DNA from: Minisyncoccia bacterium
GTDB taxonomy: Bacteria > Patescibacteriota > Minisyncoccia > Phycocordibacterales > Phycocordibacteraceae
Length of the DNA: 64,000 nucleotides
Direction of reading: 5' to 3'
Assembly: GCA_050011835.1 (NCBI GenBank)
Contig: JBEKII010000003.1
Span: forward strand, 39,842 to 103,841
This document shows positions 38,311 through 53,206 of this stretch, piece by piece. Within the stretch, counting starts at the first letter, position 1. Each line of letters opens with the position of its first letter. Below the pieces are notes generated by a model, which saw nothing but the letters and a program-made list of their open reading frames with translations, did not search any database and was not told where the DNA came from. Position numbers and translations under genes: made by a program.

Positions 38311-38398
38311 GGACACTATATTCGCAACACCCAGGCATTAAAGTTGCGAAGGTATTGAACCATTACGCTTGGCTGACAGGATGGGAAAAAGATGAAAG

Positions 38399-38439
38399 AA
38401 GAGCCGGACGGTAAAGACCTCCGGCTCTTTGTATTTTTA
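38399..38439 (+). terminator. Hairpin plus T-run (terminator-like) immediately downstream of the IS, followed by a TATAAT box at 38444-38449
   Basis: AGAGCCGGA-cggtaaagacc-TCCGGCTCT then TTGTATTTTTA. TATAAT lies 39 nt before the probable pseF start. Confidence 0.45.
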
Positions 38440-38487
38440 TGTTATAATGTTAATACGATATCGACACATCATTTATTGAGCGATATG

Positions 38488-39264: not shown

Positions 39265-40187
39265 CAACACAAAAAAGTAAACTCGTACTCGGCACCGTTC
39301 AGCTCGGCATGAAATACGGGCTCAACAATACTCATGGACAACCGACAAAGAAAGAATCCTTTGCGATATTGGATGCGGCGCTTGCCGTCGGCATTACCAC
39401 ATTTGATACTGCATATGCGTACGGCACCTCCGAAGACATTCTCGGCGCATGGATTCAGGAACGTTCCCTGGCGGGGAAGGTCCATATCATTTCAAAAATG
39501 AAACCGCATGTTCTGAACGATTATCCTGACGGAACGAAAGCCGCTGATATCGTACGAAGGGAATTAGTAAAATCATTACAGCGTCTTCATGTGGAGTCTC
39601 TTGACGGTTATTTATTTCACTCACCGTATTACATCTATCTGCACCATATGGTTGAAGGATTGCAAAAAGCTCGGGATGCCGGCATGGTGAAAAATATCGG
39701 CGTGTCAATCTATGACGAGCCCGAAGCCCTTCAAGCGGTTGAACTCGGCGTTGACTATGTGCAGGTGCCGTACAATGCATTTGACCAGCGGTTGGACGCC
39801 ACTGATTTTTTTGGCATAGCGAAGAAAAATAATGTAACCGTTTTTGCTCGCAGTCCTTTTCTGCAGGGATTAGTGCTAATGCGACCGAACCAGTTGCCGA
39901 AGCATCTTTCTTATATCCAGCCGTATCTAGAGCAGTTTATTGAAATTATCGGACGATATCACCTGTCTCCTGTTCAGGCCGCGCTCCTCTTTGCGAACGA
40001 ACACTGCAGGGCGGATTATATAGTTTTCGGTGTTGAAACTCTCTCTCAACTAAAAGAGAATATTGCCACCGTGAAAGATTCTGCATCTTCTCTTGGCAGT
40101 GGTTGGATCCTTGAAATAGAAAATTGCTTCAGGAATATTAATCATGGAGCCATTAATCTGAGTTTATGGAGCACGATAAAGCGATGA
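39261..40187 (+). CDS. Aldo/keto reductase family oxidoreductase
   Basis: LGTVQLGMKYGLNN, FDTAYAYGTSE (Tyr catalytic context), and AKR fold length 308 aa. ATGA overlap upstream. Confidence 0.8.
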   Translation: MTTQKSKLVLGTVQLGMKYGLNNTHGQPTKKESFAILDAALAVGITTFDTAYAYGTSEDILGAWIQERSLAGKVHIISKMKPHVLNDYPDGTKAADIVRRELVKSLQRLHVESLDGYLFHSPYYIYLHHMVEGLQKARDAGMVKNIGVSIYDEPEALQAVELGVDYVQVPYNAFDQRLDATDFFGIAKKNNVTVFARSPFLQGLVLMRPNQLPKHLSYIQPYLEQFIEIIGRYHLSPVQAALLFANEHCRADYIVFGVETLSQLKENIATVKDSASSLGSGWILEIENCFRNINHGAINLSLWSTIKR

Positions 40188-40194
40188 ATTATCT

Positions 40195-40803
40195 ATGACT
40201 CCAGATGCGATTATCATTTTATCCGCAGGCTCCATTGCGTATGAAGAAGGCGGGAGGACCCATTGGCGCGCTACAACATACGACAATAGCGATGCGTTCG
40301 GGACACTTGGCGGCCGCGATCGCCTAGAAGCCGCCGCTCTGCTTGCCGAAAAATATCCGGATGCGTATTTCGTAACGGTCTCACGCAACTTTACGGGCCT
40401 CCCAACGTTGGCGCAGATATATGCCGATGAATTGCGCGAATTGGGCGTGGCACCTGAACGCATCATACAAGAGGAACATTCGACAAACACTGAGACCGTT
40501 GTACAACAAGCAATACGGCTCGCACAGAAAAAAGGATGGAAGAAAATCCTTTTCCTTTCAAGCGATTACCATCTCCCGCGTATCATCGCGTTTTATCGCC
40601 GCCAGAAAGATGACATCTTAGGAGATTTTGTTTCTTCCGAATCGATACTTGGTGCAGTTGATTCGAAATTTGCCGCGCGATTTGCCGCGGTGCAGAAAAC
40701 TGCCGCGTACCAAACGCGGATTGCATCGGAGGCGCGCGGACTTGCAGCCCTTGAGGAAGGTGCCTATCAGAGCGCTCCCGCAGAAGACAAACACGAGCAC
40801 TAG
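40195..40803 (+). CDS. DUF218 (YdcF/ElyC/SanA-like) domain protein
   Basis: IIILSAG...FLSSDYHLPR is a typical DUF218 core. Confidence 0.6.
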   Translation: MTPDAIIILSAGSIAYEEGGRTHWRATTYDNSDAFGTLGGRDRLEAAALLAEKYPDAYFVTVSRNFTGLPTLAQIYADELRELGVAPERIIQEEHSTNTETVVQQAIRLAQKKGWKKILFLSSDYHLPRIIAFYRRQKDDILGDFVSSESILGAVDSKFAARFAAVQKTAAYQTRIASEARGLAALEEGAYQSAPAEDKHEH

Positions 40804-40823
40804 AGGTATTATCCCGTTACAAT

Positions 40824-41519
40824 ATGAACAAAAAAACCGTCATCATCACCGGCGTATCATCGGGTCTCGGAAAGGCCCTTTTTGATACCCTGCGCGGCAC
40901 GGGTGTGCGTCTCATCTGTATTTCGCGCACATTTCTTAGCTATCAAACTGCACTTTCAGACAAAAATGTGACGTTGCTCGTATGCGACCTCAGCAATGTG
41001 AAAGAAGTATTTTCTATCACCCAGAAATTGAACAAGATTTTGGAAGGTGCAAATGACATTGTTTTTATAAACAACGCCGCAACAATCGCGCCAATAGGGC
41101 TCATCGGCGAGATTGACGACGGGGCGATTGTCGCGGCTGCGAATATAAATTTTGTGAGTCCCATGCTCATCATGAATGTTTTGTGCAAGTTACAAAAAGC
41201 GAAAAAACTTACCTTTATTCATCTCACAACAGGTGCGGCACGCACGCCCATCATTGGCTGGCCGTTGTACTGTTCCACCAAAGCCGCGCTCAAAATGTTC
41301 TTTGCGATAATAAAGAGGCAATATAAGAACAACAAAAGATTTATCGTCCACGAATTTGACCCCGGCGTGATGAACACGCCCATGCAAAAACAGATACGGC
41401 AATCCTCGCGCAAGAATTTTCCGCGCGTTGAAGAGTTTAAAAAACTGCAACGGGCGCGCAAACTGTCAAACCCGTTGTTTGTCGCGCAGAAATTAGTCAA
41501 GCGCTATATACGCGTATGA
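40824..41519 (+). CDS. Short-chain dehydrogenase/reductase (SDR)
   Basis: TGVSSGLGKAL glycine motif, NNAA, and YCSTKAALKMF (YxxxK). Confidence 0.8.
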   Translation: MNKKTVIITGVSSGLGKALFDTLRGTGVRLICISRTFLSYQTALSDKNVTLLVCDLSNVKEVFSITQKLNKILEGANDIVFINNAATIAPIGLIGEIDDGAIVAAANINFVSPMLIMNVLCKLQKAKKLTFIHLTTGAARTPIIGWPLYCSTKAALKMFFAIIKRQYKNNKRFIVHEFDPGVMNTPMQKQIRQSSRKNFPRVEEFKKLQRARKLSNPLFVAQKLVKRYIRV

Positions 41520-42220
41520 AGATAGGCGTCCTCGCAGATATTCACGGCAATAATATTGCGCTTCACGCGGTACTGGAAGAAGCGTTAAAAGAGGGCATTG
41601 ACCGGCTTTTTGTGCTTGGTGATTTCGTTGGTTATTACTACAGTCCGAACGAAGTACTTGCGCAACTGGCGAATTTTAAAACGACGATGATACGCGGCAA
41701 TCACGAAACGATGATGGAGGTGGCGCAACATGATGAAGTGTTAGCAAAAAAGATACGCGCGAAATACGGAAGCGGAGCATCGCTCGCGCTGGAAAACCTT
41801 TCTAAAGAACAGATTAAGCAGTTACGAGAGCTTCCAGAAACCGCCGAAATTGCTCTTGATGGCGTAACGTTCCTATTGTGTCACGGCTCTCCGTGGGACA
41901 CGAATGAATATATATATCCGGATGCGGATGAGACGACGCTCCGTGCGTGCGCATCGCAAGGGGCGGATTTCGTATTGCTTGGACACACCCATTATCCCTT
42001 GATGTATACCTATAAAGGCAAGGTCGTACTTAACCCGGGATCGGTAGGGCAGCCGAGGGATATAGGAAATATGGCGAGTTGGGCTATTATTGATACCGCG
42101 AATCGGAGCGTTATACAAAAACGGACAATGTTCGATACCGCTCCGATTCTGCAAGAAGCGCAACGCAGAGACCCTGCGGTTCCTTATCTCGTGGACGTGC
42201 TCCGAAGAAAAAAGATATGA
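41516..42220 (+). CDS. Metallophosphoesterase (calcineurin-like, YfcE/MJ0936 type)
   Basis: GVLADIHGN, GDFVGY, GNHE, LCHGSP, GHTH metal-binding motif series. Confidence 0.8.
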   Translation: MKIGVLADIHGNNIALHAVLEEALKEGIDRLFVLGDFVGYYYSPNEVLAQLANFKTTMIRGNHETMMEVAQHDEVLAKKIRAKYGSGASLALENLSKEQIKQLRELPETAEIALDGVTFLLCHGSPWDTNEYIYPDADETTLRACASQGADFVLLGHTHYPLMYTYKGKVVLNPGSVGQPRDIGNMASWAIIDTANRSVIQKRTMFDTAPILQEAQRRDPAVPYLVDVLRRKKI

Positions 42221-43170
42221 AAAAATATAAATCAATTTTGGTAACCGGTTGCGGAGGCGACATCGGCACCGGTATCGGCCGCATCCTAAAAGAAACTGGT
42301 CTCGTGCAAACGATTATTGGCGCCGATATACGTCCGGACAATGCAGGAATATGCGTTTTTGACACCTGTGATGTGCTGCCGAGGGCGGATGACTCGCAAT
42401 ATTTTGACGTTCTTGAACAGCTCGTTAAGAAATATTCTGTGGACTTGCTGATTCCTATGTCCGAGGCCGAGATACGTTTGTGGTATCGAAACGATTATTC
42501 CGAAACGTTTGCCGGAGTGCCGGTGGTTATGCCGAATCGTGAAGTGTTCGATGTCGCTATCGACAAGCTTGTTACCGCCGAGTTTTTAAAGTCACACGGC
42601 CTGCCGTATCCCTGGACTATGCTGGTTCGCGACGGGACCCCGCGCGCGTTCCCCTGCATCATTAAAAGTCGCGGTATCGGAAGCAAAGGAGGAGTTGAAA
42701 TTGTTGATAAATTCTCGGTTTCCTATTTTAGTGCCAAGCGCCCCGACAATATCTGGCAAGAATACCTTGAAGGCGAAGAGTACACCGCCGGCGTCTACGG
42801 TTGTCAGAATGGAGAAATACGAACTATCGTTATGAAGCGGAAACTTTCCGGCGGTATGACGGGCTACACTTCGGGAGGGGAAGTTGTTGACGAACCGGAC
42901 ATAACGCGCGTGCTCATGCAACTGGCGAAGGGACTTTCGCTTAAAGGCAGTATCAACGTCCAATTACGGCTCACAAAAAAAGGGCCTGTCATATTTGAAA
43001 TAAATCCGCGTTTCTCCAGCACCGTCGTATTCCGGCATAAACTGGGATTCAAGGACGTGGTGTGGTCCTTGGAAGAAAAGTTGGGATATCCCGCCTCTTC
43101 GTATGTGCCGCCCAAAGCGGGTACGAAATTCTACAAGGGCTATACGGAATACATCACATCCACATCTTGA
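42217..43170 (+). CDS. ATP-grasp domain protein
   Basis: IIKSRGIGSKGG, EEYTAGVY, and EINPRFSS (ATP-grasp Mg/ATP site). 317 aa. Confidence 0.75.
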   Translation: MKKYKSILVTGCGGDIGTGIGRILKETGLVQTIIGADIRPDNAGICVFDTCDVLPRADDSQYFDVLEQLVKKYSVDLLIPMSEAEIRLWYRNDYSETFAGVPVVMPNREVFDVAIDKLVTAEFLKSHGLPYPWTMLVRDGTPRAFPCIIKSRGIGSKGGVEIVDKFSVSYFSAKRPDNIWQEYLEGEEYTAGVYGCQNGEIRTIVMKRKLSGGMTGYTSGGEVVDEPDITRVLMQLAKGLSLKGSINVQLRLTKKGPVIFEINPRFSSTVVFRHKLGFKDVVWSLEEKLGYPASSYVPPKAGTKFYKGYTEYITSTS

Positions 43171-43245
43171 CAACAGCGTTTTAATGAGTATTCTATTTAC
43201 AGGCGCTCATTTTGTTATTAACATTAAAAAAGAAAGGGAGGTATC

Positions 43246-44310
43246 ATGAAAAAAAATACGGTCAAAATAGGAAAGCGCACGATTGGACCAGGACAGCCGG
43301 TCTTTATGATCGCAGAGATGTCCGGTAATCACAATCACAACGTCAGGCGTGCACATGCCATCGTTGATGCCGCCGCGGATGCCGGTGCCGATGCCCTTAA
43401 GCTCCAAACCTATACCGCCGATACCATCACGCTCAATTCCGACCGACCCGAGTTTCTCGTCACGTGGCAGAACAAAAAGCGTACGCTCTATGACCTTTAC
43501 CAAGAAGCGGGAACGCCGTGGGAATGGCATGCGGAGCTTTTCGCTCATGCGCGTGAACGCGGCATGATACCGTTCTCTTCGCCCTTCGATACGACCGCGG
43601 TTGACTTTCTTGAGCGACTCAATGTTCTTCTCTATAAAGTCGCCTCGTTTGAAGTCGTAGACATTCCGCTTCTTGAAGCGATAGGGAAGACGAAGAAACC
43701 GGTCATCATGTCGCGCGGGATGTCGAGTTTTGAAGAGCTCCAGCTCGCTATTGATACCCTGCGCAACGCCGGCACCAAAGATATCGTAATTCTGCATTGT
43801 GTAAGCGCATATCCGGCGAAGCCAGAGGATATGAATCTGAAAACGATTCCGTACATTGCGGAACGCTTTGGCATTCCGGCGGGATTATCAGACCATACGC
43901 TTGGCACTGATGTCGCCGTTGCTGCGGTAGCGCTTGGTGCTCGGGCGATAGAAAAGCACATGACACTCAAGCGTGCCGAGGGCGGTGTTGATTCGGAGTT
44001 CTCGCTTGAACCGGCCGAGTTCGCGGCGCTCGTCCAGTCAGCGCACATTGTAGAAAGTGCGCTTGGGAAACCGACTGATGCGCGCGGCGCGCGCGAAGAA
44101 GGAGAAGCCCGATTTCGCAAGTCGCTATTCGCGGCGGCCGATATCAAAAAGGGCGAGATCTTTACCGAGAAGAATATCCGCTCGGTGCGACCGAGCGCGG
44201 GCTTACCGTCCAAGTATTATCATCAAGTGTTGGGTAAGCGCGCAACGCGCGATATTTCCTTCGCATCGCCGCTTAAATGGAATATGGTCCAAGGCGGGCG
44301 GCGAAAATAG
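43246..44310 (+). CDS. pseI: Pseudaminic acid synthase (NeuB-family sialic acid synthase), PseI-like
   Basis: IAEMSGNHNHNV...AIVDAAADAGADALKLQTYTADTIT is colinear with PseI/NeuB N-terminal TIM-barrel motifs. C-terminal SAF domain. Confidence 0.8.
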   Translation: MKKNTVKIGKRTIGPGQPVFMIAEMSGNHNHNVRRAHAIVDAAADAGADALKLQTYTADTITLNSDRPEFLVTWQNKKRTLYDLYQEAGTPWEWHAELFAHARERGMIPFSSPFDTTAVDFLERLNVLLYKVASFEVVDIPLLEAIGKTKKPVIMSRGMSSFEELQLAIDTLRNAGTKDIVILHCVSAYPAKPEDMNLKTIPYIAERFGIPAGLSDHTLGTDVAVAAVALGARAIEKHMTLKRAEGGVDSEFSLEPAEFAALVQSAHIVESALGKPTDARGAREEGEARFRKSLFAAADIKKGEIFTEKNIRSVRPSAGLPSKYYHQVLGKRATRDISFASPLKWNMVQGGRRK

Positions 44311-44334: not shown

Positions 44335-44367
44335 CTGGCTCCTCGCCGCGAGGAGCCAGTTTCTTTT
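44335..44367 (+). terminator. Rho-independent terminator after pseI
   Basis: CTGGCTCCTCG-ccgc-GAGGAGCCAG followed by TTTCTTTT. Confidence 0.7.
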
Positions 44368-44401: not shown

Positions 44402-46162
44402 ATGAAGAATACTTTGGCGACGCTCTGGCAGGCGTTTCGCAGATATCGATGGCACATCGCGGTACTCGTGGTGTTTGGGTTCTTGAGCGCCATACTAGAA
44501 GGCATCGGCATCAACGCTGTCATTCCGCTCGTATCTTTTTTCACTGGTGCAAGTAGCGGGCCGACTGATTTCATTACTCACACCATTCAAATACTGTTCG
44601 GCTTCTTCCACATACCATTCAGTTTCCGTTATCTGCTCGGTTTCATTTTTTGTCTATTCATATTGCGAGCATTGTCCGTCGTCGTGTTCGGCTACGTTCG
44701 CGGCTGGATAAGCGCGGACTTCCTCGGCAAAGAAAGCGAGGACGTGTTGCGCCGAACGCTCCTTTCTTCGTGGTCATTTTCGCTGAAGCAGAAAATAGGC
44801 ACCATGCACAATACACTCGTGCGTGACATTCAACAGACCGGAGCGCTTCTCGGCACGGTGGCGCAGATCGTTCAATCGTTCAGCGGTTTCCTTATGTATC
44901 TCTTAGTAACCATCAATATTTCACCGACCATGACGTTGTATACGCTTGGCGGCGGCGCCATCCTCGTGTTCTTTTTGCAGCCGCTTCTTCGGCGTGCCAA
45001 GCGTATCGCGGAGCAAGCGGCAGGAGTTGAGAAGCAGTTCGCGCAATTTCTAAGCGAGCACATCATCGGATTGAAATCCGTCAAAGCCGCCGGTGCGGAG
45101 CGCTCCGCTATTGCGGATGGCAACGAGCACATACAGCTCCTGCGTTCTCTTTCAATACGACAATCACTCGTTCATTCCATTAGCACCAGTTTCTTCCAGC
45201 CGTTCAGCATCGTCCTCGTCATCGTGCTTTTTTTGCTGACGTATCACACACCCTCGTTCAACGTCATTTCATTTGCGGCTTCATTGTATCTGATACAAAA
45301 AATGTTCACGTATCTCGAGTCCGGACAAGCCGCTCTGCAGTCGGTAGGCGAGCTGGTTCCGTATACACAGAATATCGCCGCGTTCAAGCGCAAGCTTGAT
45401 CTGCATCGCGAGCTATCCTCGGGCGATGCACCCTTTGCCTTTGCAAGAGAACTTTCTTTTAAAAATATCTCATTCTCATATGATGAAGACAAACCAATTT
45501 TAAGCGGAGTCAATTTTTCGATACGAGCAGGGGAAACAACGGGACTCATTGGACCTTCGGGCGCAGGGAAAACGTCAATTGCCGACCTCATCTTGCGTCT
45601 TTTCAAACCGGACGAAGGTTCACTATTACTTGATGGAGTGCCGAGCGAATCTATTGCTCTTGAGGCATGGCGCAAACATATCGGCTACGTATCTCAAGAT
45701 GTGTTCCTGCTCAATAGCTCTATTGAAGAAAACATTCGGTTTTATAATCAGACGTTGACCACTGAAGATATCGAGAACGCCGCAAAGCAAGCGAATATCT
45801 ATGACTTCATTAAGGAATTGCCTCAAGGATTCAAGACGGTAACGGGCGACCGAGGCGTCATGCTCTCGGGCGGACAGCGCCAACGTGTCGCGCTTGCCCG
45901 TGCGCTTGCCGGCAAACCAGCGCTTCTTCTATTGGACGAAGCGACGAGCGCTCTTGATTACGAATCAGAAAAACTTATCCATGAATCTATTCGAGCGCTT
46001 CATGGGGGTGTAACGGTACTTATCATTGCGCATCGTCCATCTACTGTCGCCGAGGCCGATACTATTCTCGTATTGAATCATGGTCACATAGAAGAGCGCG
46101 GTTCGCCGCAGGAACTTCTCCGAGACAGTGAGTCGTATTTCTACAAAATGCAGGAGGCGTAA
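44402..46162 (+). CDS. Fused ABC exporter (TMD-NBD; MsbA/PglK-like lipid-linked oligosaccharide flippase family)
   Basis: Start at the internal ATG (MKNTLATLWQ), because the 5' part of the track ORF overlaps pseI. Six TM helices. Walker A GPSGAGKTS, signature LSGGQRQRVALARAL, Walker B LLLDEATSALD. Confidence 0.85.
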   Translation: MKNTLATLWQAFRRYRWHIAVLVVFGFLSAILEGIGINAVIPLVSFFTGASSGPTDFITHTIQILFGFFHIPFSFRYLLGFIFCLFILRALSVVVFGYVRGWISADFLGKESEDVLRRTLLSSWSFSLKQKIGTMHNTLVRDIQQTGALLGTVAQIVQSFSGFLMYLLVTINISPTMTLYTLGGGAILVFFLQPLLRRAKRIAEQAAGVEKQFAQFLSEHIIGLKSVKAAGAERSAIADGNEHIQLLRSLSIRQSLVHSISTSFFQPFSIVLVIVLFLLTYHTPSFNVISFAASLYLIQKMFTYLESGQAALQSVGELVPYTQNIAAFKRKLDLHRELSSGDAPFAFARELSFKNISFSYDEDKPILSGVNFSIRAGETTGLIGPSGAGKTSIADLILRLFKPDEGSLLLDGVPSESIALEAWRKHIGYVSQDVFLLNSSIEENIRFYNQTLTTEDIENAAKQANIYDFIKELPQGFKTVTGDRGVMLSGGQRQRVALARALAGKPALLLLDEATSALDYESEKLIHESIRALHGGVTVLIIAHRPSTVAEADTILVLNHGHIEERGSPQELLRDSESYFYKMQEA

Positions 46163-46187
46163 AAGCTCGCCGTGTCTGTGGTATAGT

Positions 46188-48365
46188 ATGACTATCATGC
46201 GGGATAAGGAGATAGCGAAGCAGATTGCGAGGTGGGTGGCGCTCGGAGCGCTTTTCCTCATACCGCTCGCGCCGCTTATCGTTGCGAATTCGCTCTTTTT
46301 CCCCTTTATCACCGGGAAAGCGTTTTTCTTCAGGATTCTTGTAGAAATCGCTGTGTGTGCGTGGATAGTACTCGCATTTCTTGATAAAGAATATCGTCCG
46401 CGCTTTTCTTGGATTGGAGTTGCGGTGCTCGCTTTCGTCGCGTGGATGTTCATCTCGGATCTTTTCGCAATTAATGTTGCAAAGGCTTTTTGGAGCAATT
46501 TTGAGCGCATGGAGGGTTGGGTACTACTCATTCATCTTCTTGGTTTTTTCTTTGTGGCGAGCGCGGTGCTGCGGGTGGAAAAGAAGTGGCGTGCGTGGTT
46601 TCTCGCGTCTCTCGGTGTTTCTTGTGTCGTTTCCGCATACGCATTTCTGCAACTCGCGGGCACGCTGGCTATCCATCAAGGTTCTTCCCGCATTGACGCC
46701 ACGTTCGGCAATTCTGCGTATCTCGCGATTTATCTTCTTTTTAATACCTTCATCGCGCTTTGGCTCGCGTCAACTGAGAAGCGTCCATGGCTCAAATGGT
46801 CATTGTTCGCGCTCGCTTTCATAGAGGCAGTACTCATCTTTTTTACCGAGACGCGCGGAACAATCTTAGGATTTATTGGCGCGCTCGCGCTCGCCGCGCT
46901 TATCGCCGCGTGTACCGCGGGCAAACATATTCGTCGCATCGCCATCGGCGCGCTCGCGATTATTTTGATCCTTGCGGGCGGTTTTTATTTTGCGCGCAAT
47001 TCTAATTTCATACAGAACAATCACGTACTCCAACGCGTTGCCTCCATTTCGCTCTCTGATGGCCAGACGCGTTTCACCATCTGGCATATGGCATTTGAGG
47101 GGATGCTCGAACGTCCTCTTACGGGCTGGGGACAAGAGGGCTTCAATTATGTTTTCAATAAATATTATGACCCGTCGCTATATCAACAGGAGCCGTGGTT
47201 TGACCGTGCACATAACGCCTTCATTGATTGGCTCGCCGCAGGAGGCATTCCAGCATTTCTTCTCTATCTTTCACTTTTCGGCTCCGCCATTATATTGCTC
47301 TGGAAAAGTTCAACGCTCTCACGCCCGGAGCGTATCGTGCTTACCGCGGCGCTCGTCGGCTATGCCTGCCACAATCTTTTTGTTTTTGACAACCTTTATT
47401 CATATATATATTTCTTCGCGATACTCGCACTCATTGATTCGCAGGTTGCGCGGCCGATTGCCCGTTTTGAACGCGCGCCCGAACTTGCCGCGACAGATGG
47501 GATGACGTATGCTCTTCCGATCGGTGCCGTCGCCGCTTTTGCACTCGTTTGGTATATCAATATCCCCGGAATGCAAGTCGCGGCGAAGCTCATTACGGCG
47601 CTTTCGCCTTCTGCCGCCGGAATTGAAGGGAACATCGCTGCGTTTGAAGACCTTGCCGCACATCCGGCGTTCGCGGCGCAGGAAGTTCGCGAACAAATCA
47701 TTTCCTCCGCGGCAAGTATTGTGCAAAGTCAGTCGGCGACAGATGCTGAAAAACAGCAGGCGGTCTCGCTTGCCATAACCGAAATGCAAAAACAGGTTGC
47801 TGCGTATCCGCAAGACGCGCGCGAGCGGCTCCAACTCTCATATGCGTATCGCGTTGCGGGCGACAACGCCGATGCGCTCAAGCAAGTCCAAGCCGCGATT
47901 CTTCTCTCGCCGAATAAAGAGGAATTCTTTGTTGAAGCGGGCGCGATTGAATGGGATTTGAATGACGTCAAAGCGGCACAAACAGATTTCAATAAGGCGT
48001 ATGCGCTCGGTCCCTCGTTCTCAGATCTCGCCACGTATGCGGCCGCCGGCGATATTGCCGCCGGAGACCAGTCAACGGGCAACAAAATCCTGCTTAGTAC
48101 CTTCGGCACCACGACCCTTGACAGCGATATTCTCGCAGTTGCTTATTATCAAGCGAGAGATTGGCCGCAACTTATCGCCATTTGGAAATCGCGCGCGGAG
48201 AAGCCCGGCGCAAGTGTTGAGATCTGGTTTTCTCTCGCCTCGGCATATTATGTCGCGGGTGATGCTGCAGACGCCATTGCAACGATTCATGCCGCGGTCG
48301 CACTGTATCCGGACGCATCTTCCTCCGGCGCCGCCGCCATCAAACAAATAGAAGCAGGTAAATGA
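46188..48365 (+). CDS. O-antigen ligase-family (Wzy_C) polytopic membrane protein with C-terminal TPR-like domain; candidate O-oligosaccharyltransferase (WaaL/PglL/WsaB family)
   Basis: About 12 TM helices containing the Wzy_C-type segment FIEAVLIFFTETRGTILGFIGALALAAL. ~300 aa C-terminal soluble region with TPR-like helical repeats (..SYAYRVAGDNADALKQVQAAILLSPNKEEFFVEAGAIEWDLNDVKAAQTDFNKAYALGP..). Confidence 0.6.
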   Translation: MTIMRDKEIAKQIARWVALGALFLIPLAPLIVANSLFFPFITGKAFFFRILVEIAVCAWIVLAFLDKEYRPRFSWIGVAVLAFVAWMFISDLFAINVAKAFWSNFERMEGWVLLIHLLGFFFVASAVLRVEKKWRAWFLASLGVSCVVSAYAFLQLAGTLAIHQGSSRIDATFGNSAYLAIYLLFNTFIALWLASTEKRPWLKWSLFALAFIEAVLIFFTETRGTILGFIGALALAALIAACTAGKHIRRIAIGALAIILILAGGFYFARNSNFIQNNHVLQRVASISLSDGQTRFTIWHMAFEGMLERPLTGWGQEGFNYVFNKYYDPSLYQQEPWFDRAHNAFIDWLAAGGIPAFLLYLSLFGSAIILLWKSSTLSRPERIVLTAALVGYACHNLFVFDNLYSYIYFFAILALIDSQVARPIARFERAPELAATDGMTYALPIGAVAAFALVWYINIPGMQVAAKLITALSPSAAGIEGNIAAFEDLAAHPAFAAQEVREQIISSAASIVQSQSATDAEKQQAVSLAITEMQKQVAAYPQDARERLQLSYAYRVAGDNADALKQVQAAILLSPNKEEFFVEAGAIEWDLNDVKAAQTDFNKAYALGPSFSDLATYAAAGDIAAGDQSTGNKILLSTFGTTTLDSDILAVAYYQARDWPQLIAIWKSRAEKPGASVEIWFSLASAYYVAGDAADAIATIHAAVALYPDASSSGAAAIKQIEAGK

Positions 48366-49381
48366 ATCTGCAAGAAAACATCTCTCTCGCGCCGTTCACG
48401 ACATTTCATATCGGGGGACCGGCGCGTTTTTTTATAGAAGCACGAACTGAAAAAGAAATAAAAAACGCAATTGCCCGCGCACGTAAACTTAATCTCCCGA
48501 TATATCTTCTTGGCGCCGGAAGTAATCTGCTTGTACCGGACATCGGTGTTGAAGGCATTGTGCTCAAAATAGCACTGCACGATATTGCGTTTGAAAATGA
48601 AAGTGACGCTGCGCGACTCATTGCCGGTGCCGGCACACTTTGGGAAACGGTTGTGAATGCCGCGAGCAAACGTGGTCTTTTTGGCATTGAAAATCTCGCG
48701 GGTATTCCCGGAACGATGGGCGGTGCCTCGGTGCAAAATATCGGCGCGTATGGCGCGGAACTCGCTGACACGTTTGACTATGCCGATGTCGTTGATAGTA
48801 TAACGGGCGCACAGAGGCGTATCAACCGCACCGAGGCCGCATTCGGATACCGCACCAGTTTTTTCAAAGAGCATCGTACACTTATTATCATACGTACCGC
48901 ATTGCGTTTCTCGAAACAAGCGTTTCCGAACATCACTTATCCGAATCTCATACGCGCGCAAGAGGCGGGCACGCCGCTTCAAACGCCGTCCGAGATCGCA
49001 CGCGCCGTTCGCGTCATTCGCTCCGAGATGTTTTCTCTCACGACGAAGGAGGGCACTGCGGGATCATTTTTTAAGAATCCTATTATTTCAAATGCACGCG
49101 CCGAACAGCTTTCAAAACGTTTTCCGGGACTCCCGCTGTTTCCCGAGAGAGATAACATGGTAAAAATACCGCTCGCATGGCTTCTGGACCACGCGCTTTC
49201 TCTCAAGGGATTTTCAAAGGGCCGCGTGCGGCTTTATGAAAAACAGCCGCTGGTGATTGTTGCGCGCGCCGGAGCAACCGCTGCAGACGTAGACGCGTTC
49301 GCGCGCAAAATCGCGGAGCGCGTTCTCTCTATGACGGATATTGTGATTGAGCGCGAAGTAGAGACATTCGGCACACGATAG
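48362..49381 (+). CDS. murB: UDP-N-acetylenolpyruvoylglucosamine reductase MurB
   Basis: FAD-binding domain with LLGAGSNLLV. Conserved MurB C-terminal domain. ATGA overlap upstream. Confidence 0.85.
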   Translation: MNLQENISLAPFTTFHIGGPARFFIEARTEKEIKNAIARARKLNLPIYLLGAGSNLLVPDIGVEGIVLKIALHDIAFENESDAARLIAGAGTLWETVVNAASKRGLFGIENLAGIPGTMGGASVQNIGAYGAELADTFDYADVVDSITGAQRRINRTEAAFGYRTSFFKEHRTLIIIRTALRFSKQAFPNITYPNLIRAQEAGTPLQTPSEIARAVRVIRSEMFSLTTKEGTAGSFFKNPIISNARAEQLSKRFPGLPLFPERDNMVKIPLAWLLDHALSLKGFSKGRVRLYEKQPLVIVARAGATAADVDAFARKIAERVLSMTDIVIEREVETFGTR

Positions 49382-49532
49382 TTTTTTGCAAAGTTATCCA
49401 CACATATTTTTTTTCGGCACAAAAAGGTTTTTTTATGCGCGATAATGACAAGTAGAAACGTTTGCGCAATAAAAAATTGGTTCGTGCGCAGACGGGTCGA
49501 CATATCAACCTTTATCTTAATTCGCAACCACC

Positions 49533-49586
49533 ATGGCAAAGAGACGTAAGGCCGCGAAGAAAGCGGGAAAAAAGAAGCGCGGATAG
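49533..49586 (+). CDS. Tiny ORF encoding a 17-aa Lys/Arg-rich peptide (MAKRRKAAKKAGKKKRG), speculative
   Basis: Hand translated. It is followed by its own hairpin terminator. No SD sequence seen. Confidence 0.15.
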   Translation: MAKRRKAAKKAGKKKRG

Positions 49587-49595
49587 TTTTGTTTG

Positions 49596-49640
49596 AAGAA
49601 AAATCCTTCCGTTGACTGACGGAGGGATTTTTCTTTTTGG
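49596..49640 (+). terminator. Rho-independent terminator
   Basis: AATCCTTCCGT-tgactg-ACGGAGGGATT followed by TTTCTTTTT. Confidence 0.6.
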
Positions 49641-49666
49641 CTCAAATGCAAGATAAGTGATATAAT
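49637..49666 (+). promoter_or_regulatory. Putative sigma70-like promoter for secA (TTGGCT-18-TATAAT)
   Basis: TATAAT at 49661-49666, 8 nt upstream of the secA ATG. An upstream TTGGCT sits with an 18-bp spacer. Suggests a very short leader or leaderless transcript. Confidence 0.35.
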
Positions 49667-49674
49667 GCGCCATA

Positions 49675-52209
49675 ATGTTTGATTTCTCGCACTTTTTTTC
49701 TAAAAATCAGTCTGAGGCCTTTCTGAAAACCGCGGCGCCAATTGTGGCGGCGACGAATGTCCTGTCCAAGGAACTCTCCGAACTCTCGGATGAAGCGATT
49801 CGAGCGCGCTTTGACGAAGTGCGCGCTCGAGCGAAGGAGGCGGGCGCGGCGGCCGAGCAGGACATCCCGCTTATCTTTGCGCTCGTGCGCGAGGCGGCTC
49901 GTCGCACACTCAGACAATCTCATTTTGATGTGCAACTGGCCGGCGGTCTTGCGCTTCTCCGCGGCAAAATCGCCGAGATGCGGACCGGCGAAGGGAAAAC
50001 GCTCGTTGCCACATTACCGGCGACTTTCCATGCGCTTTCGGGGAAGGGCGTGCAGATTGTCACCGTTAATGATTATCTCGCCCGCCGCGATGGCGTGTGG
50101 ATGGGACAGGTCTACGATTATGTTGGTCTCACGGTCGGTGTTGTGACGAGCGTCGGCGCGTATCGCTACGACCAATCGCATGTGGCGGAAGAAGAAGCGA
50201 AAGAATTAGACAGCGAGCGCGATGCCGCGGGCTCGTTTAAAGTTTTCTACGACTATCTGCGCCCCGCGACTAAAAAAGAGGCATATGCGTGCGATATCAC
50301 CTATGTCACCAACAATGAACTCGGATTTGATTATTTGCGTGACAATACTGCCTATGACGCGTCGCAGATCGTGCAGCGAAGTTATTATTATGCGATTATT
50401 GACGAAGTTGATTCCATTTTAATTGATGAAGCGCGCACGCCGCTCATCATCTCGGGGCCTTCCGGCGATTCGGAATCATTTTATGAGCAGTTCGCACATA
50501 TCGTGCGGGGCATGCGAGAGGGAGAGGATTATACCGTTGATGAAAAACAAAAAGCGATTCAGATTACCGAAGCGGGAATGAAGAAGGCCGAAGACGCGCT
50601 CGGTCTGGAGAATCTCTATACCGAGGGCGGAATGAAATACGCGCATCATCTGGAAACAGCCGTGCGCGCACAAGCGCTTTTCCATAAAGATAAGGAATAT
50701 GTGGTGCGCAACGGCGAAATTATCATCGTTGATGAATTTACGGGGAGAATGCAGCCGGGCCGCCGTTGGTCGGAGGGTTTGCATCAGGCGATAGAGGCGA
50801 AGGAAGGTGTTTTGGTACATGCGGAAACGCGTACGTATGCATCGGTTACCTTCCAAAATCTCTTTCGCATGTATGAGCGGCTCGCCGGCATGACGGGTAC
50901 CGCGCTTTCGTCGGAAGAAGAATTTTATACCGTCTACGCGCTTGATGTCGTCGTGGTGCCGACCAATAAACCATCACAGCGCAAGGATTATGACGACCTT
51001 ATATTCCAAACAGCGGCAGGAAAGTATCGCGCCGTTGCGCGTGCGGTGAAGGAGCGTTATGCAAAGGGCCAACCGGTCTTGGTGGGAACCGTTTCTATTG
51101 AAGATAATGAAATTGTCAGCACGTATCTGACGAACGAAGGCGTGCCGCACGAAGTGCTGAATGCGAAGAATCATGAACGCGAAGGCGAAATCATCGCCGA
51201 AGCGGGGAAGGAAGGACGTGTGACGGTCGCGACCAATCTCGCGGGCCGTGGCGTTGATATCAAGCTCGGTGGCGCGCTCGCCACGAGCGAGATGCGCGCC
51301 TCGGTCATTGAGAAGGGAGGTCTGATGGTTCTCGGTACCGAACGGCACGATGCGCGCCGCATTGACAATCAATTGCGCGGACGTTCCGGCCGTCAAGGCG
51401 ACCCGGGCGAGACGCGTTTTTATGTTTCTTTGGAGGATAAACTGATGCGTGTTTTCGCGTCCGAGACGTTGAAGAAGGTCATGGGTCGTTTCGGCATTCC
51501 CGAGGACGAACCCATTGAAAGCGCGCTGATTACCCGGTCTCTGGAAACCGCACAGGGGCGTATCGAGGGGTTTAATTTTGACTCGCGGAAACAAGTTCTT
51601 GCCTACGATGACGTGATGAACACTCAACGTCTCGCCATATATGCGCGCCGCCGCGCGGCGCTTGTAGGAAGCGATGCAGAGATTGAGGCGCTTTTCCATG
51701 AGCTTCTTTTAAATAATGATGCGGCGCGCGGCGCGTTTGAATCAAAAAAAATAGAATTCGGCGACGCGTTCACCGCCCACTTGCGCCGTCTCCTTTTGCA
51801 GGTCATTGATATATTTTGGCTTGAGCATCTTGAGACCATGGATTACCTGCGGCGTTCAGTATCGCTTCGCGCGTACGGGCAGCGGGACCCTTTAATTGAA
51901 TATCGGCGCGAAGGACTCGCGCGTTTCCGTCAGCTGGAAGCGGATATTAAGGCAGCGGTTGCTGAAGCATTGCCACGTCTTCAATCTGTGGACAATGAGC
52001 GTATTCGCGTGGAAGAAGAAAAGACGCGCGCCGCGCTCATTGCGGCAGGTCAGGAGGAAAATGGCGCACCAGTGCCGATTAAAAAAGCGGCCGGATATGG
52101 GCGCAATGATATTGTCACAATAAAAAAGGACGGCGAGACGCGGACGATTAAGTTTAAAAAAGCTGAACCGCTTTTGGCCAACGGCTGGGAAATAATGGAT
52201 GCACGTTAG
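49675..52209 (+). CDS. secA: Preprotein translocase subunit SecA
   Basis: DEAD-like motor motifs AEMRTGEGKTLVATLPA, DEVDSILIDEARTPLIISG, GTTGTALS..; 844 aa. Confidence 0.95.
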   Translation: MFDFSHFFSKNQSEAFLKTAAPIVAATNVLSKELSELSDEAIRARFDEVRARAKEAGAAAEQDIPLIFALVREAARRTLRQSHFDVQLAGGLALLRGKIAEMRTGEGKTLVATLPATFHALSGKGVQIVTVNDYLARRDGVWMGQVYDYVGLTVGVVTSVGAYRYDQSHVAEEEAKELDSERDAAGSFKVFYDYLRPATKKEAYACDITYVTNNELGFDYLRDNTAYDASQIVQRSYYYAIIDEVDSILIDEARTPLIISGPSGDSESFYEQFAHIVRGMREGEDYTVDEKQKAIQITEAGMKKAEDALGLENLYTEGGMKYAHHLETAVRAQALFHKDKEYVVRNGEIIIVDEFTGRMQPGRRWSEGLHQAIEAKEGVLVHAETRTYASVTFQNLFRMYERLAGMTGTALSSEEEFYTVYALDVVVVPTNKPSQRKDYDDLIFQTAAGKYRAVARAVKERYAKGQPVLVGTVSIEDNEIVSTYLTNEGVPHEVLNAKNHEREGEIIAEAGKEGRVTVATNLAGRGVDIKLGGALATSEMRASVIEKGGLMVLGTERHDARRIDNQLRGRSGRQGDPGETRFYVSLEDKLMRVFASETLKKVMGRFGIPEDEPIESALITRSLETAQGRIEGFNFDSRKQVLAYDDVMNTQRLAIYARRRAALVGSDAEIEALFHELLLNNDAARGAFESKKIEFGDAFTAHLRRLLLQVIDIFWLEHLETMDYLRRSVSLRAYGQRDPLIEYRREGLARFRQLEADIKAAVAEALPRLQSVDNERIRVEEEKTRAALIAAGQEENGAPVPIKKAAGYGRNDIVTIKKDGETRTIKFKKAEPLLANGWEIMDAR

Positions 52210-52210
52210 T

Positions 52211-53182
52211 ATGGCATTCGTTGATGAAGTGAAGATATATGCAGAAGCGGGACGAGGCGGAAATGGCGTCGTTCGCTGGTTGCGTACCAAGACGAATGCG
52301 CGCGGCGGGCCTTCCGGCGGTGACGGCGGCAAGGGCGGCAATGTCGTACTTCTTGGCGTGCGCGATTTGTCGGCGCTTGCGCATTTTCGTTATGAAAAAA
52401 TATTTCATGCGGAGAATGGCGTTGCCGGAAAAGGCGCTTTAAAACATGGAGCGAACGGCGCGGAATGTATTCTTAGAGTGCCGGTCGGGACGCTTTCGCG
52501 CATTGTTGCGACAGGCGAAGAATATGAGATAACGAAAGAGGATGAGCGCATCGTTATTTTTCGTGGCGGCGCGGGAGGGAGGGGCAACGCTCACTTTAAG
52601 AGTTCCACGAATCAAAATCCATTTCAACAGACCGCAGGTAAAGAAGGGGAAAGCGGGAATATTGAACTTACCTTGAAAATTATCGCAGACGCGGGTCTTA
52701 TTGGACTCCCGAATGCTGGGAAATCTTCGCTCCTCAACGCACTTACACGAGCCAAGTCAAAAGTGGGGAACTATCCCTTTACAACACTTGAACCAAATCT
52801 CGGCGATTTCTATGGACGCGTCATCGCCGATATCCCCGGTCTTATAAAGGGCGCCTCGTCCGGACGAGGGCTTGGGGTAAAATTTCTTAAGCATGTTGAA
52901 CGTACAAGAATTTTGCTGCATCTTGTCTCGGCAAACCAAGATGACCCCCTCGCGGCGTATAGGGAAGTGCGCAGGGAAATAGCATTATTCGGGCACGGGC
53001 TTCTTGAAAAGAAAGAAATAGTCGTCCTGTCTAAAACAGACCTTGTCTCAACAGGAGAATGCGAAACAAAAATACAATTACTTGCTCGAGAAACGGATAG
53101 GGAAGTGCTTGTGGTATCAATAAAGAACGCCGTAATCCTCAAGCAGTTCTCCAATCAGCTCGCTAAACTTCTTGCGAAATAG
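52211..53182 (+). CDS. obg: GTPase Obg (short form without C-terminal OCT/TGS extension)
   Basis: Obg N-terminal glycine-rich fold FVDEVKIYAEAGRGGNGVVRWLR..GGPSGGDGGKGGNV. G1 GLIGLPNAGKSSLL, G3 DIPGLI, G4 SKTD. Confidence 0.9.
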   Translation: MAFVDEVKIYAEAGRGGNGVVRWLRTKTNARGGPSGGDGGKGGNVVLLGVRDLSALAHFRYEKIFHAENGVAGKGALKHGANGAECILRVPVGTLSRIVATGEEYEITKEDERIVIFRGGAGGRGNAHFKSSTNQNPFQQTAGKEGESGNIELTLKIIADAGLIGLPNAGKSSLLNALTRAKSKVGNYPFTTLEPNLGDFYGRVIADIPGLIKGASSGRGLGVKFLKHVERTRILLHLVSANQDDPLAAYREVRREIALFGHGLLEKKEIVVLSKTDLVSTGECETKIQLLARETDREVLVVSIKNAVILKQFSNQLAKLLAK

Positions 53183-53206
53183 TTCTATTCAGCTAGTATA
53201 GCGGCA

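Follow-up and report, generated by a model that had tools for sequence, protein, structure and literature searches.

Several described glycan ligases share the Pfam Wzy_C domain, which by itself cannot tell O-oligosaccharyltransferases (O-OTases) from lipid-directed ligases (PMC12645811). WaaL (Cupriavidus metallidurans, PDB 7TPG/7TPJ; E. coli K-12) ligates O-antigen onto lipid A-core in an LPS-bearing outer membrane. PglL, the general O-OTase of the Gram-negative Neisseria meningitidis, whose relatives are PglS, TfpO/PilO and TfpM, carries a reported C-terminal TPR motif (PMC2943079). In Gram-positive bacteria, WsfB (Paenibacillus alvei) and WsaB (Geobacillus stearothermophilus), compared here by their published description, are predicted Wzy_C O-OTases that move lipid-linked glycans to S-layer proteins. 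An ABC transporter exports the glycan in both systems; WsfB has a C-terminal TPR motif, while a separate TPR protein, WsaA, is encoded alongside WsaB (PMC2943079). TacL (RafX), the LTA ligase of Streptococcus pneumoniae, belongs to the Wzy_C family in a host without LPS, taking an Und-PP-linked teichoic acid from a dedicated flippase and ligating it to a glycolipid outside the membrane (PMC5727136).

We analysed a 64-kb stretch of DNA (hereafter the window) in which the gene for a 586-aa ABC exporter, ending in TAA, is followed after 25 nt by that for a 725-aa Wzy_C protein with a C-terminal TPR domain (Table 1). Open reading frames and Pfam matches agree on this arrangement, as the first-pass annotation had described it. 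The precedent claimed there for a Wzy_C protein with an extra domain among O-OTases is borne out by PglL and WsfB; WsaB, which had been named as an example, lacks TPR (PMC2943079). The 725-aa protein is very probably a glycan ligase, whichever acceptor it uses. The fuller reading, in which a lineage-wide ligase of the Wzy_C (WaaL/PglL/TacL) superfamily combines relaxed glycan specificity with a protein acceptor in an O-OTase-like manner, we judge to be evenly balanced. Direct support comes from domains, fold, catalytic-residue conservation, synteny and flippase-type alternation; we infer the topology, which way transfer runs, the carrier lipid and, most of all, that the acceptor is a protein.

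Table 1. Features of the window, in window coordinates.
Feature	Position	Strand	Basis or remark
Variable glycan-biosynthesis island	5036..44310	+	Pfam scans; content varies between related genomes
TagF-like gene, weak Glyphos_transf match	25148-27058		In the island
Nonulosonate genes: PseB-like, DegT, CMP-transferase, NeuB	30351, 31364, 38392, 43246	+	Pfam; upstream of the ligase gene
IS (rve) element	37295-38254	minus	Inside the island
Terminator-like hairpin between neuB and ABC gene	44335..44359	+	11-bp stem, 8 G-C pairs, T-rich tail
ABC exporter, TMD-NBD fusion, half-size type IV (ABCB/MsbA-like), 586 aa	44402..46162	+	Pfam ABC_membrane and ABC_tran
Wzy_C-TPR glycan ligase gene, 725 aa	46188..48365	+	Alternative start 46197
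Wzy_C (PF04932) core, residues 209-361, with R223, R295 and H342	46812..47270	+	Pfam
Codons of R223; R295; H342	46854-46856; 47070-47072; 47211-47213	+	Codons checked
Large extracytoplasmic loop TM9-TM10 (predicted), residues 271-343	46998..47216	+	Topology, AF2 secondary structure, conservation
Additional 13th transmembrane helix (predicted), residues ~435-465	47490..47582	+	
Extracytoplasmic TPR domain (predicted), residues 466-725, ~7 helical hairpins	47583..48362	+	
Conserved core block: murB, secA, obg, gatB, 286-aa HTH_17/TM protein	48362..55496	+	Synteny
Giant Ser/Thr-rich surface-protein ORF, >2,600 aa, to window end	56204..64000	+	Candidate glycan acceptor

Fold, active site and predicted topology of the Wzy_C-TPR protein

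The Wzy_C match scores 75.5 bits (cutoff 31.7) and contains the FTETRG motif highlighted in the first-pass annotation; the TPR tail proposed there is matched by TPR_2 at 36.1 bits (cutoff 27) and by several further TPR models over residues ~520-715. The first ATG of the gene lies at 46188. In alignments most homologues begin at the position of a second ATG (M4, 46197), which may therefore be the true start. At the other end, the TGA stop overlaps the murB ATG by 4 nt (ATGA, 48362-48365). In a profile search the protein matched WaaL 7TPG (E=2.9e-5), and WaaL was also its top structural match; its AF2 model has a pLDDT of 84 and a pTM of 0.77. With HMM and fold matches this strong and homologues in the thousands, the assignments of the exporter and the Wzy_C-TPR protein are not due to chance.

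The Arg/Arg/His set of the WaaL/PglL type is present in the Wzy_C core. R223, R295 and H342 align with R191, R265 and H313 of C. metallidurans WaaL and correspond to R224, R298 and H349 of PglL (PMC3643930). Against E. coli WaaL, R223 and R295 align with R215 and R288, and the AHN motif corresponds to LHN in the HLHNE motif around H338, so that the proteins have TRG, R-x-x-I-W and (A/L)HN in common. The equivalent WaaL residues are reported as essential, and PglL conserves them (PMC3643930, PMC9829042). Along with other residues of predicted outside loops, all three are 100% invariant among 259 homologues. The large TM9-TM10 loop, predicted to face outward and also found in WaaL, is the best conserved segment of the protein (59%, against 28% in the TPR domain), and the expected donor is, as for WaaL, a polyprenyl-PP-linked glycan.

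Overall identity to WaaL is only 12%, and the architecture departs from it. Thirteen transmembrane helices are predicted, against 12 in WaaL, with the positive-inside rule obeyed at every loop. The 13th is predicted to return the chain to the cell exterior. Together with the AF2 model, this topology places the ~260-aa TPR domain on the extracytoplasmic side, in line with the earlier expectation. Family variants gain transmembrane helices in pairs, which keeps parity.

PglL_A (PF15864), which the first-pass annotation had put forward as a check, and Wzy_C_2 (PF11846), both marks of PglL/PglS, are absent from the Wzy_C-TPR protein even at E<=10, and none of 240 homologue clusters lists either of them. 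No NCBIfam equivalog cutoff is attained.

Homologues are annotated as 'O-antigen ligase family protein' in the source records. A classical WaaL, moving O-antigen onto lipid A-core, would accord with that name, with the WaaL fold and catalytic residues and with the GT9 heptosyltransferase-family genes of the island. However, CPR/Parcubacteria are reported without lipid A/LPS biosynthesis and with a Gram-positive-like envelope (PMC5220378, PMC10221324). Classical LPS ligation is therefore unlikely, as the first-pass annotation had held, and the acceptor should differ from that of WaaL. Within the 64 kb of the window Pfam scans detected neither waa nor lpx nor kds genes, the gene is locked to murB-secA instead of lying in an LPS-core locus, and the 13th helix, the outside TPR domain and the unreached equivalog cutoffs all speak against WaaL, making this reading extremely improbable.

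Variable glycan island and alternating flippases

Upstream of the two genes lies an island with many GT4, GT2 and GT9 genes, more than ten glycosyltransferases in all, together with epimerases, methyltransferases, cytidylyltransferase genes and a GtrA/GT2/PMT_2 trio. The nonulosonate pathway and the glycosyltransferases reported earlier were thus recovered. An initiating phosphoglycosyltransferase was not found within the window by Pfam scans; this result and the GT9 (heptosyltransferase-family) genes were counted against the protein-acceptor ligase. One related locus (L080) has counterparts of both left-flank genes, 2935-4674 and 5036-6265, no more than 10 kb away from the ligase gene, and the homologue of 5036-6265 ends only ~4.5 kb from it.

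The strong terminator-like hairpin lies between neuB and the ABC gene. It suggests that transcription of ABC, Wzy_C-TPR and murB runs as a unit of its own, apart from the nonulosonate operon. Pfam scores for the exporter are 41.5 bits (ABC_membrane) and 119.5 bits (ABC_tran). As a TMD-NBD half-transporter it belongs to the same type IV exporter class as PglK, MsbA and HepA, and it adjoins a glycan ligase gene, like PglK in pgl loci. Among solved structures, ABCB1 and other exporters of the ABCB type are nearest to it in sequence. The earlier 'PglK-type' label did not hold up: among NCBIfam models, HepA_fam (348 bits, cutoff 725) and MsbA (302, cutoff 602) score higher than PglK (239, cutoff 1000). 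The exporter lies far under each equivalog cutoff; we regard it as a candidate flippase or exporter of lipid-linked glycan.

The pairing of this exporter with the ligase, central to the first-pass annotation, stood in part. A flippase is usually nearby, but an ABC exporter homologue lies upstream of the ligase gene in only 25 of 64 related loci. Where 6 kb or more of upstream sequence was available (55 loci), 19 loci carry an ABC exporter only, 24 a Wzx only and none both; no flippase was detected within 10 kb in the remaining 12, at least two of which are undercounts. As the nearest upstream ORF, scored in 67 loci, an ABC exporter occurs 16 times and a Wzx-type protein 14 times, the others being PMT_2, GT2, dehydratases and similar. 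The ABC exporter is thus an optional partner that alternates with Wzx at a hypervariable upstream locus, and because Wzx takes its place in many genomes, it is dispensable for the system overall.

A core gene in a conserved block

Downstream, murB directly follows the Wzy_C-TPR gene in 66-67 of 70 related loci, and secA-obg-gatB comes next. The order ligase-murB-secA-obg-gatB also holds in relatives only 35-40% identical. Across related genomes the Wzy_C-TPR protein is 53-79% identical, and its identity to the window's copy rises and falls with that of secA (r=0.83); the gene evolves at a housekeeping rate. More than 2,600 homologue representatives were collected (50% clustering, E<=1e-30), and those with a source name are all Kaiser-, Campbell- or Pace(i)bacteria, Parcubacteria, or carry unresolved 'Patescibacteria' or 'bacterium' labels. 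The host itself was placed in Kaiserbacteria/Paceibacteria (CPR). In Paceibacteria/Parcubacteria (CPR) the gene is part of the vertically inherited core and not island cargo. The exporter and ligase had been described as a two-gene module at the island end; their adjacency stands, but the ligase belongs to the neighbouring core block.

The tight association with murB could also point to a cell-wall enzyme, with peptidoglycan or lipid II as the acceptor of its glycans or with another role in peptidoglycan assembly. This would account for the fixed position and the murB overlap. The block, however, also has the functionally unrelated secA, obg and gatB, which makes the ligase-murB adjacency look like frozen gene order. 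Furthermore, murB identity does not track that of the ligase (r=0.18), murB is apart or missing in five loci (L082, L083, L084, L020 and L071), and known monoderms attach polymers to peptidoglycan by LCP enzymes, not by Wzy_C proteins (PMC5727136). We consider such a role quite improbable.

The same conservation bears on a Wzy-type polymerase, which would build a long surface polysaccharide from flipped repeat units instead of ligating a finished glycan. Many O-antigen polymerases fall in Pfam Wzy_C, the protein weakly matches an NCBIfam oligosaccharide repeat-unit polymerase model (E=0.013), Wzx flippases are typical of Wzx/Wzy pathways, and a second Wzy_C protein was not seen in the 64-kb window. 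Yet such polymerases normally change together with the repeat unit, whereas the Wzy_C-TPR protein persists while the locus changes completely, and its gene is kept equally in ABC exporter loci, where a Wzy is unneeded. With a ligase-type His in the AHN motif, common to WaaL, and WaaL as its top structural match, the protein is unlikely to be a polymerase.

Since the enzyme is near-constant while the glycan genes change, a ligase at this position must tolerate many glycans, like PglL and WaaL. Relaxed glycan specificity of the PglL type would account for a constant enzyme next to glycan genes that vary between genomes.

Candidate acceptors

In the proposed mechanism, the hypervariable locus would assemble, on the inner side of the membrane, a glycan linked to polyprenyl diphosphate as carrier; in this genome the glycan would contain a nonulosonate. 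A flippase, here the MsbA/PglK-like ABC exporter and elsewhere Wzx, would carry it outward. The ligase would then bind the lipid-PP-glycan via its invariant outside-loop R223, R295 and H342 and, on the membrane's outer side, transfer this glycan en bloc to an acceptor, which the TPR domain, set outside by the 13th helix, would recruit. The acceptor is probably a protein, and the likeliest candidates sit at the cell surface, for example giant Ser/Thr-rich fibres, pilins or S-layer proteins. If so, the enzyme would be a general O-oligosaccharyltransferase analogue, a ligase with an outward TPR tail in an ultra-small CPR bacterium expected to lack LPS.

A lipid acceptor is the main alternative. 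A TacL-like ligase would transfer the flipped glycan, or a teichoic-acid-like polymer, from its polyprenyl-PP carrier to a membrane glycolipid anchor, yielding a lipoglycan or LTA-like product. TacL shows that a monoderm Wzy_C protein can ligate in this way (PMC5727136), the Wzy_C/WaaL chemistry and R/R/H residues are in common, the island holds the TagF-like gene and cytidylyltransferase genes, and a conserved lipid acceptor would suit housekeeping-level conservation. TacL, however, is a TPR-free protein of 397 aa (PMC5727136), in contrast to the 725-aa protein here with its 13th helix and outside TPR domain. TPR is a protein-binding fold, and genes for anchor-glycolipid synthesis were not recognised beside the Wzy_C-TPR gene. 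We therefore regard a TacL-like role as possible but doubtful.

The protein-acceptor reading also has points against it, among them the absent PglL_A and Wzy_C_2 domains and the 12 loci in which no flippase was detected. TPR domains also serve as scaffolds in polysaccharide export. No pilin gene adjoins the Wzy_C-TPR gene, unlike those of TfpO, TfpM and PglS; in lacking a close link to any single acceptor gene it resembles PglL (PMC12645811). WsfB and WsaB are encoded inside an S-layer glycosylation cluster by the S-layer gene, whereas the Wzy_C-TPR gene belongs to the core genome and lies outside the variable cluster, and an S-layer gene was not identified in the window. Transfer to protein is proposed here for a monoderm-like CPR host, in contrast to the Gram-negative host of PglL.

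The candidate acceptor in the window is the giant downstream ORF, which is rich in Ser and Thr (26% together), as noted in the first-pass annotation. Its place in the same conserved block was counted for a protein acceptor. It lies ~8 kb from the ligase gene, a distance counted against that reading, and owes its linkage solely to conservation of the block as a whole. Most related loci retain its N-terminal 450 aa downstream of the core block.

Architecture and family of the ligase and its ABC exporter

The ORFs and Pfam matches confirm the arrangement described in the first-pass annotation: a fused ABC exporter, a 25-nt spacer between its TAA and the next ATG, and a 725-aa protein (hereafter referred to as the ligase) with an FTETRG-bearing Wzy_C core and a TPR tail. 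The exporter consists of a TMD (ABC_membrane PF00664, 41.5 bits) fused to an NBD (ABC_tran PF00005, 119.5 bits). Residues 209–361 of the ligase match Wzy_C (PF04932; 75.5 bits against a gathering cutoff of 31.7), with the FTETRG motif inside, and several TPR models match residues ~520–715 (TPR_2, 36.1 bits against a cutoff of 27). In most homologues the N-terminal Met aligns with an alternative ATG at 46197, which may be the true start. The hairpin that follows neuB is the strongest terminator-like site within the 7 kb scanned, and the ligase stop overlaps the murB start (ATGA). From these two features, the exporter, ligase and murB are probably cotranscribed.

Coordinates of features in and around the glycan island
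Feature	Position	Strand	Description
TraG/VirD4/TrwB-like type IV coupling ATPase	2935–4674	+	left island edge
~594-aa protein	15049–16833 (ORF from 14923)	+	~10 predicted TM helices, ~200-aa C-terminal soluble domain
GtrA-family flippase	16830–17306	-	adjoins PMT_2
PMT_2 (GT-C, ArnT/PMT-like)	17324–18706	+	adjoins GtrA and GT2
GT2	18621–19385	+	adjoins PMT_2
GNAT/FemAB-like protein	27408–28109	+	
DUF4910/DUF2172 (aminopeptidase-like) protein	29012–30289	+	C-terminal winged helix HTH_47
IS element	37295–38254	-	rve integrase-type transposase with HTH; between aminotransferase genes and CMP-transferase operon
Terminator-like hairpin	44335–44359	+	between neuB and ABC gene; 11-bp, G+C-rich, T-rich tail
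ABC exporter gene	44402 (ATG)–46162 (TAA)	+	586 aa
Wzy_C–TPR ligase gene	46188 (ATG)–48365	+	725 aa
murB	48362–49381		
286-aa protein	54636–55496	+	N-terminal HTH_17-like motif, then TM segment(s)
Giant ORF	56204–64000	+	N-terminal HTH_17-like motif, then TM segment(s)

Hydropathy and the positive-inside rule predict 13 transmembrane (TM) helices, with the N-terminus inside and a large outside loop at residues 271–343. The chain emerges again past TM13, which places the TPR domain (residues 466–725) on the extracytoplasmic side, the location that the earlier reading had called for. An AlphaFold2 model built from 43 homologues (pLDDT 84, pTM 0.77) agrees with the hydropathy prediction in its helices and carries helix 435–472 without a break from the membrane into a TPR solenoid of ~14 helices. 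The C-terminal domain thereby combines HMM scores above gathering level with an α-solenoid fold, and the membrane domain has the polytopic fold of WaaL, with TM10 preceded by a large outward loop. WaaL has 12 TM helices, both termini in the cytoplasm and no extra domain, whereas the ligase has 13 predicted TM helices and an outside TPR domain of 260 aa. About 25 family members (P0147, P0152, P0199 and others in the alignment) carry an insertion of ~30–60 aa after query residue ~197 (or ~129); the insertion after ~197 adds hydrophobic helices that are apparently paired, giving 15-TM variants with unchanged topology parity.

Using pairwise HMMER, we aligned the ligase with WaaL of Cupriavidus metallidurans (CmWaaL, PDB 7TPG). 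TETRG aligned with NGTRG, QTRFTIW with VRLKIW and DRAHNAF with EHAHNDI, equating R223, R295 and H342 of the ligase with R191, R265 and H313. A weak hhalign match of the family profile to E. coli K-12 WaaL (E = 0.022, probability 2%), used for residue register only, agrees with this alignment and pairs R223 with R215 and R295 with R288; the VHLHNE motif of E. coli WaaL corresponds to the AHN motif of the ligase. R215, R288 and H338 are reported to be essential in E. coli WaaL, with their counterparts R224, R298 and H349 conserved in PglL (PMC3643930). The His is required in all Wzy_C ligases and oligosaccharyltransferases (OTases) tested (PMC9829042). Across 259 aligned sequences, R223, R283, R295, H342, D339, E335, P310, G313 and G315 are 100% invariant, as are E106, R107, R168, N175 and D401, and every one of these residues falls in a predicted outside loop. 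Conservation in the same alignment is highest in the large outside loop (59%) and lowest in the TPR domain (28%).

By HMM match, fold and catalytic residues, the ligase belongs to the Wzy_C superfamily. In the PDB, WaaL (7TPG) was found both by the full-length ligase profile and by the single sequence of residues 195–385; a profile of the membrane domain only gave zero PDB sequence matches at E ≤ 10, which we treat as a filter artefact. PglL_A (PF15864) and Wzy_C_2 (PF11846), which flank Wzy_C in PglL and PglS (PMC3643930, PMC12645811), have no match in the ligase even at E ≤ 10 and are listed for 0 of 240 homologue clusters. Owing to their absence the ligase is not a PglL or PglS, and the PglL assignment made at first had to be dropped. 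The best NCBIfam equivalog, the exosortase-associated 'putative O-glycosylation ligase' TIGR03097, scores 51 bits against a cutoff of 188, and the family carries the database label 'O-antigen ligase/TPR repeat protein'. An identity as TfpO/PilO, TfpM or PglS, which are recognised by an adjacent pilin or ComP gene, was rejected. Pfam scans revealed no pilin family; the ligase is flanked by the ABC exporter and murB in the window, and in ~85 related loci by murB/secA together with flippase or glycan genes.

The exporter stays below the equivalog cutoffs for PglK (NF050066, 239.5 versus 1000) and MsbA (TIGR02203, 302 versus 602) and below the HepA family cutoff (348.5 versus 725). As the HepA and MsbA models outscore that of PglK, its initial assignment to the PglK family is not supported. 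The solved structures closest in sequence are ABCB1 and related ABCB-type exporters. Judged by these matches, the protein is a generic type IV (ABCB-like) half-exporter, and 'PglK-like' is a guess from context.

A constant ligase gene beside a variable glycan locus

All close homologues with a source name derive from Candidatus Kaiserbacteria, Paceibacterota, Parcubacteria or 'Patescibacteria' MAGs, which identifies the host as a CPR bacterium; an identical protein was matched in JGI metagenome 3300037993. To examine synteny, the window proteins were compared by tblastn with 80 related genome loci. In 66 of the 70 loci with enough downstream sequence (67 with L031, in which the genes overlap), murB lies directly downstream of the ligase on the same strand, at ≤300 nt. 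Next come secA, obg, gatB and a ~280-aa HTH_17/TM protein, after which the conserved N-terminus of the Ser/Thr-rich giant ORF usually appears. Identity to the query is 53–79% for the ligase (mean 69%), 72% for obg and 71% for gatB. Across loci, ligase identity follows secA identity (r = 0.83), which indicates vertical inheritance of the ligase at a housekeeping rate. By gene order and divergence, the ligase is a core gene and not island cargo.

The family comprises 2,617 representatives (50% clustering, E ≤ 1e-30). Among the best 150 of these, 135 are 650–850 aa long, the other 15 being shorter fragments or longer. The distant members that carry a name belong to Campbellbacteria, Pacebacteria and Parcubacteria. 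Four distant members, 34–39% identical to one another and to the Kaiserbacteria clade, have the same gene order: glycan genes with a flippase, Wzy_C–TPR, (murB), secA, (obg) and gatB. The adjacency to murB would suggest a peptidoglycan-related role, which we disfavour: the block is functionally heterogeneous, murB is separable from the ligase or missing in some loci, and its identity does not track that of the ligase (r = 0.18).

The genes upstream of the ligase vary. The nearest upstream ORF, determined in 67 loci, encodes an ABC exporter (16 loci), a Polysacc_synt (Wzx/MOP) flippase (14), PMT_2 (4) or, in the remainder, GDP-mannose dehydratase, GT2, MBOAT and others. Where at least 6 kb of sequence was available upstream (55 loci), an HMM/BLAST census assigned 19 loci an ABC exporter but no Wzx and 24 a Wzx but no ABC exporter; none had both, and 12 had neither, a class in which two or more loci are undercounts. 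Since the two types never occur together, the ABC gene is one of two interchangeable flippase options. Pairing of the ligase with one flippase of either type looks obligatory, although neither was found in those 12 of 55 loci. The glycan locus behaves like an exchangeable cassette anchored beside a constant enzyme. The original interpretation kept its general direction, and its framing of the two genes as a module closing the island gave way to a core ligase at murB–secA with an optional exporter that alternates with Wzx.

These comparisons also bear on whether the ligase is a Wzy polymerase of O-antigen or CPS. Such an enzyme would co-vary with its repeat-unit cluster and occur only in Wzx-dependent pathways; the ligase, by contrast, stays similar and tracks secA while the upstream content changes, and accompanies ABC-type as well as Wzx-type loci. 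It also has the ligase-type His motif, and the polymerase reading is disfavoured.

In the window, the cassette covers ~40 kb (5.0–44.3 kb). Pfam scans identified many GT4, GT2 and GT9 genes, epimerases, methyltransferases and a nonulosonate set (PseB-like, DegT, NeuB and CMP-transferase), and the downstream giant ORF encodes >2,600 aa with 26% Ser+Thr, all in keeping with the context first described. The IS element and a fall in GC to 0.39 at 28–30 kb (28000–30000), against ~0.50 elsewhere, point to a mosaic or horizontally acquired island. In L080, one of the compared loci, homologues of left-flank genes lie ≤10 kb from the ligase, with ~4.5 kb between the end of the nearer one and the ligase. 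The window has no tRNA or Rfam element that could mark an integration site, and no scanned ORF of the window matched an initiating phosphoglycosyltransferase (PF00953, PF02397).

Proposed mechanism and acceptor

In the mechanism we propose, the ligase would have relaxed specificity for the glycan; it would take the flipped polyprenyl-PP-linked chain and pass it en bloc to an acceptor on the extracytoplasmic side. The outward WaaL-type active site, the constancy of the enzyme beside a changing locus and the pairing with a flippase fit such an activity. Despite this active site, a classical WaaL joining O-antigen to LPS is very unlikely, as CPR/Parcubacteria reportedly possess peptidoglycan genes but lack lipid A genes and an LPS pathway (PMC5220378, PMC10221324); no lpx, kds or waa gene was found within the 64-kb window. 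In these genomes, the label 'O-antigen ligase family protein' should almost certainly not be read as a sign of LPS ligation.

Eukaryotic OGT and the TMTC O-mannosyltransferases select their protein substrates via TPR arrays. For the ligase, we favour a protein acceptor on four grounds. LPS is not expected in this lineage, the extra TM helix would solely place the protein-binding TPR solenoid outside, and giant Ser/Thr-rich proteins occur on the surface of CPR cells, the conserved block encoding one of them. Moreover, two O-OTases, PglL and WsfB, reportedly combine Wzy_C with a C-terminal TPR motif, and a TPR protein is encoded next to WsaB (PMC2943079).

The serious rival is TacL-like ligation of the glycan to a glycolipid. 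TacL, from the monoderm S. pneumoniae, is a Wzy_C ligase of 397 aa (PMC5727136), and Wzy_C alone is insufficient to separate O-OTases from lipid-directed ligases (review, PMC12645811). TacL-type LTA ligases (~400 aa, glycolipid anchor) have the Wzy_C core in common with the ligase, which differs in size and in its TPR domain; this domain is the only argument against a glycolipid acceptor. With protein as the favoured acceptor, the ligase is a candidate general glycan ligase of CPR bacteria whose acceptor is probably protein, a role that is unproven but testable.

A broader reading is put forward tentatively, and we hold it to be somewhat doubtful. Paceibacteria/Parcubacteria, which make up much of the CPR, would possess a housekeeping-grade, general protein O-glycosylation system, in which a single, slowly evolving, fixed-site 13-TM Wzy_C–TPR OTase acts with a horizontally shuffled, cassette-like glycan locus that brings its own flippase, ABC or Wzx. 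Its targets, the proteins of the coat, would be giant Ser/Thr-rich surface fibres, pilins or S-layer proteins. If so, these episymbionts would gain an O-antigen-like, serotype-variable protein coat without LPS, and the ligase would represent a monoderm/CPR class of O-OTase, separate from PglL, PglS, TfpO and TfpM and the fifth overall.

Most CPR bacteria are uncultured, and they rely on surface contact with hosts; the construction and structure of their cell envelope have been described as unclear. For an envelope so described (PMC5220378), a single, easily recognised, near-universal gene offers a concrete handle on glycan display. The ligase gene also marks a fixed hotspot of glycan cassette exchange, which suggests strain-level surface variation comparable to O-antigen serotypes and relevant to host attachment and phage pressure. 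Its putative relaxed glycan specificity and its distinct TPR module for acceptor recognition could make the ligase of interest to glycoengineering. Literature searches on O-antigen ligases and oligosaccharyltransferases of CPR, Patescibacteria or Saccharibacteria gave no paper on the family. We regard three points as new: the ligase is a lineage-wide core gene that evolves at a housekeeping rate and keeps a fixed site; it borders a cassette-like glycan locus whose flippase type alternates; and it is predicted to combine 13 TM helices, an outside TPR domain and a WaaL active site in bacteria without LPS.

Other genes and genome records

Several further genes of the island may contribute to glycan assembly. 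The adjoining GtrA, PMT_2 and GT2 genes look like a Gtr-type three-component system, which adds a single sugar outside the membrane; if so, they would form a second, independent extracytoplasmic glycosylation route within the island. The ~594-aa protein has no significant Pfam family (best LrgB, E = 5e-4, below cutoff) and could be a GT-C enzyme or polymerase that has escaped recognition. The DUF4910/DUF2172 and GNAT/FemAB-like genes lie immediately upstream of the PseB/PseC-like genes, and their products may modify the nonulosonate or add an amino-acid substituent. The coupling ATPase at the left island edge is conserved in L080 (69% identity), beside a GT4 gene.

Among the compared genomes (L002–L081), identity to the window murB is bimodal, at about 32–37% or about 49–70%, in genomes that are otherwise syntenic and similar, and shows no correlation with ligase identity. 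The pattern points to two murB types at one position, or to replacement in place. Many MAGs titled 'uncultured Candidatus Saccharibacteria bacterium' (L003, L009, L019, L021, L028 and others) have ligase genes at 66–75% identity and full synteny in common with Kaiserbacteria/Paceibacteria genomes, and these titles are probably taxonomic mislabels. The MAG bins CAZJZB01 and CAYGEV01 each contain the whole syntenic block twice, which suggests mixed-strain bins rather than paralogues.

In the giant ORF, residues 2292–2349 form a Peptidase_S74 intramolecular-chaperone domain. Most related loci conserve the first 450 aa of the ORF, whereas its middle part matches in only 18 (17 besides L001, the query's own contig), a pattern that suggests a conserved anchor joined to a variable exposed region.
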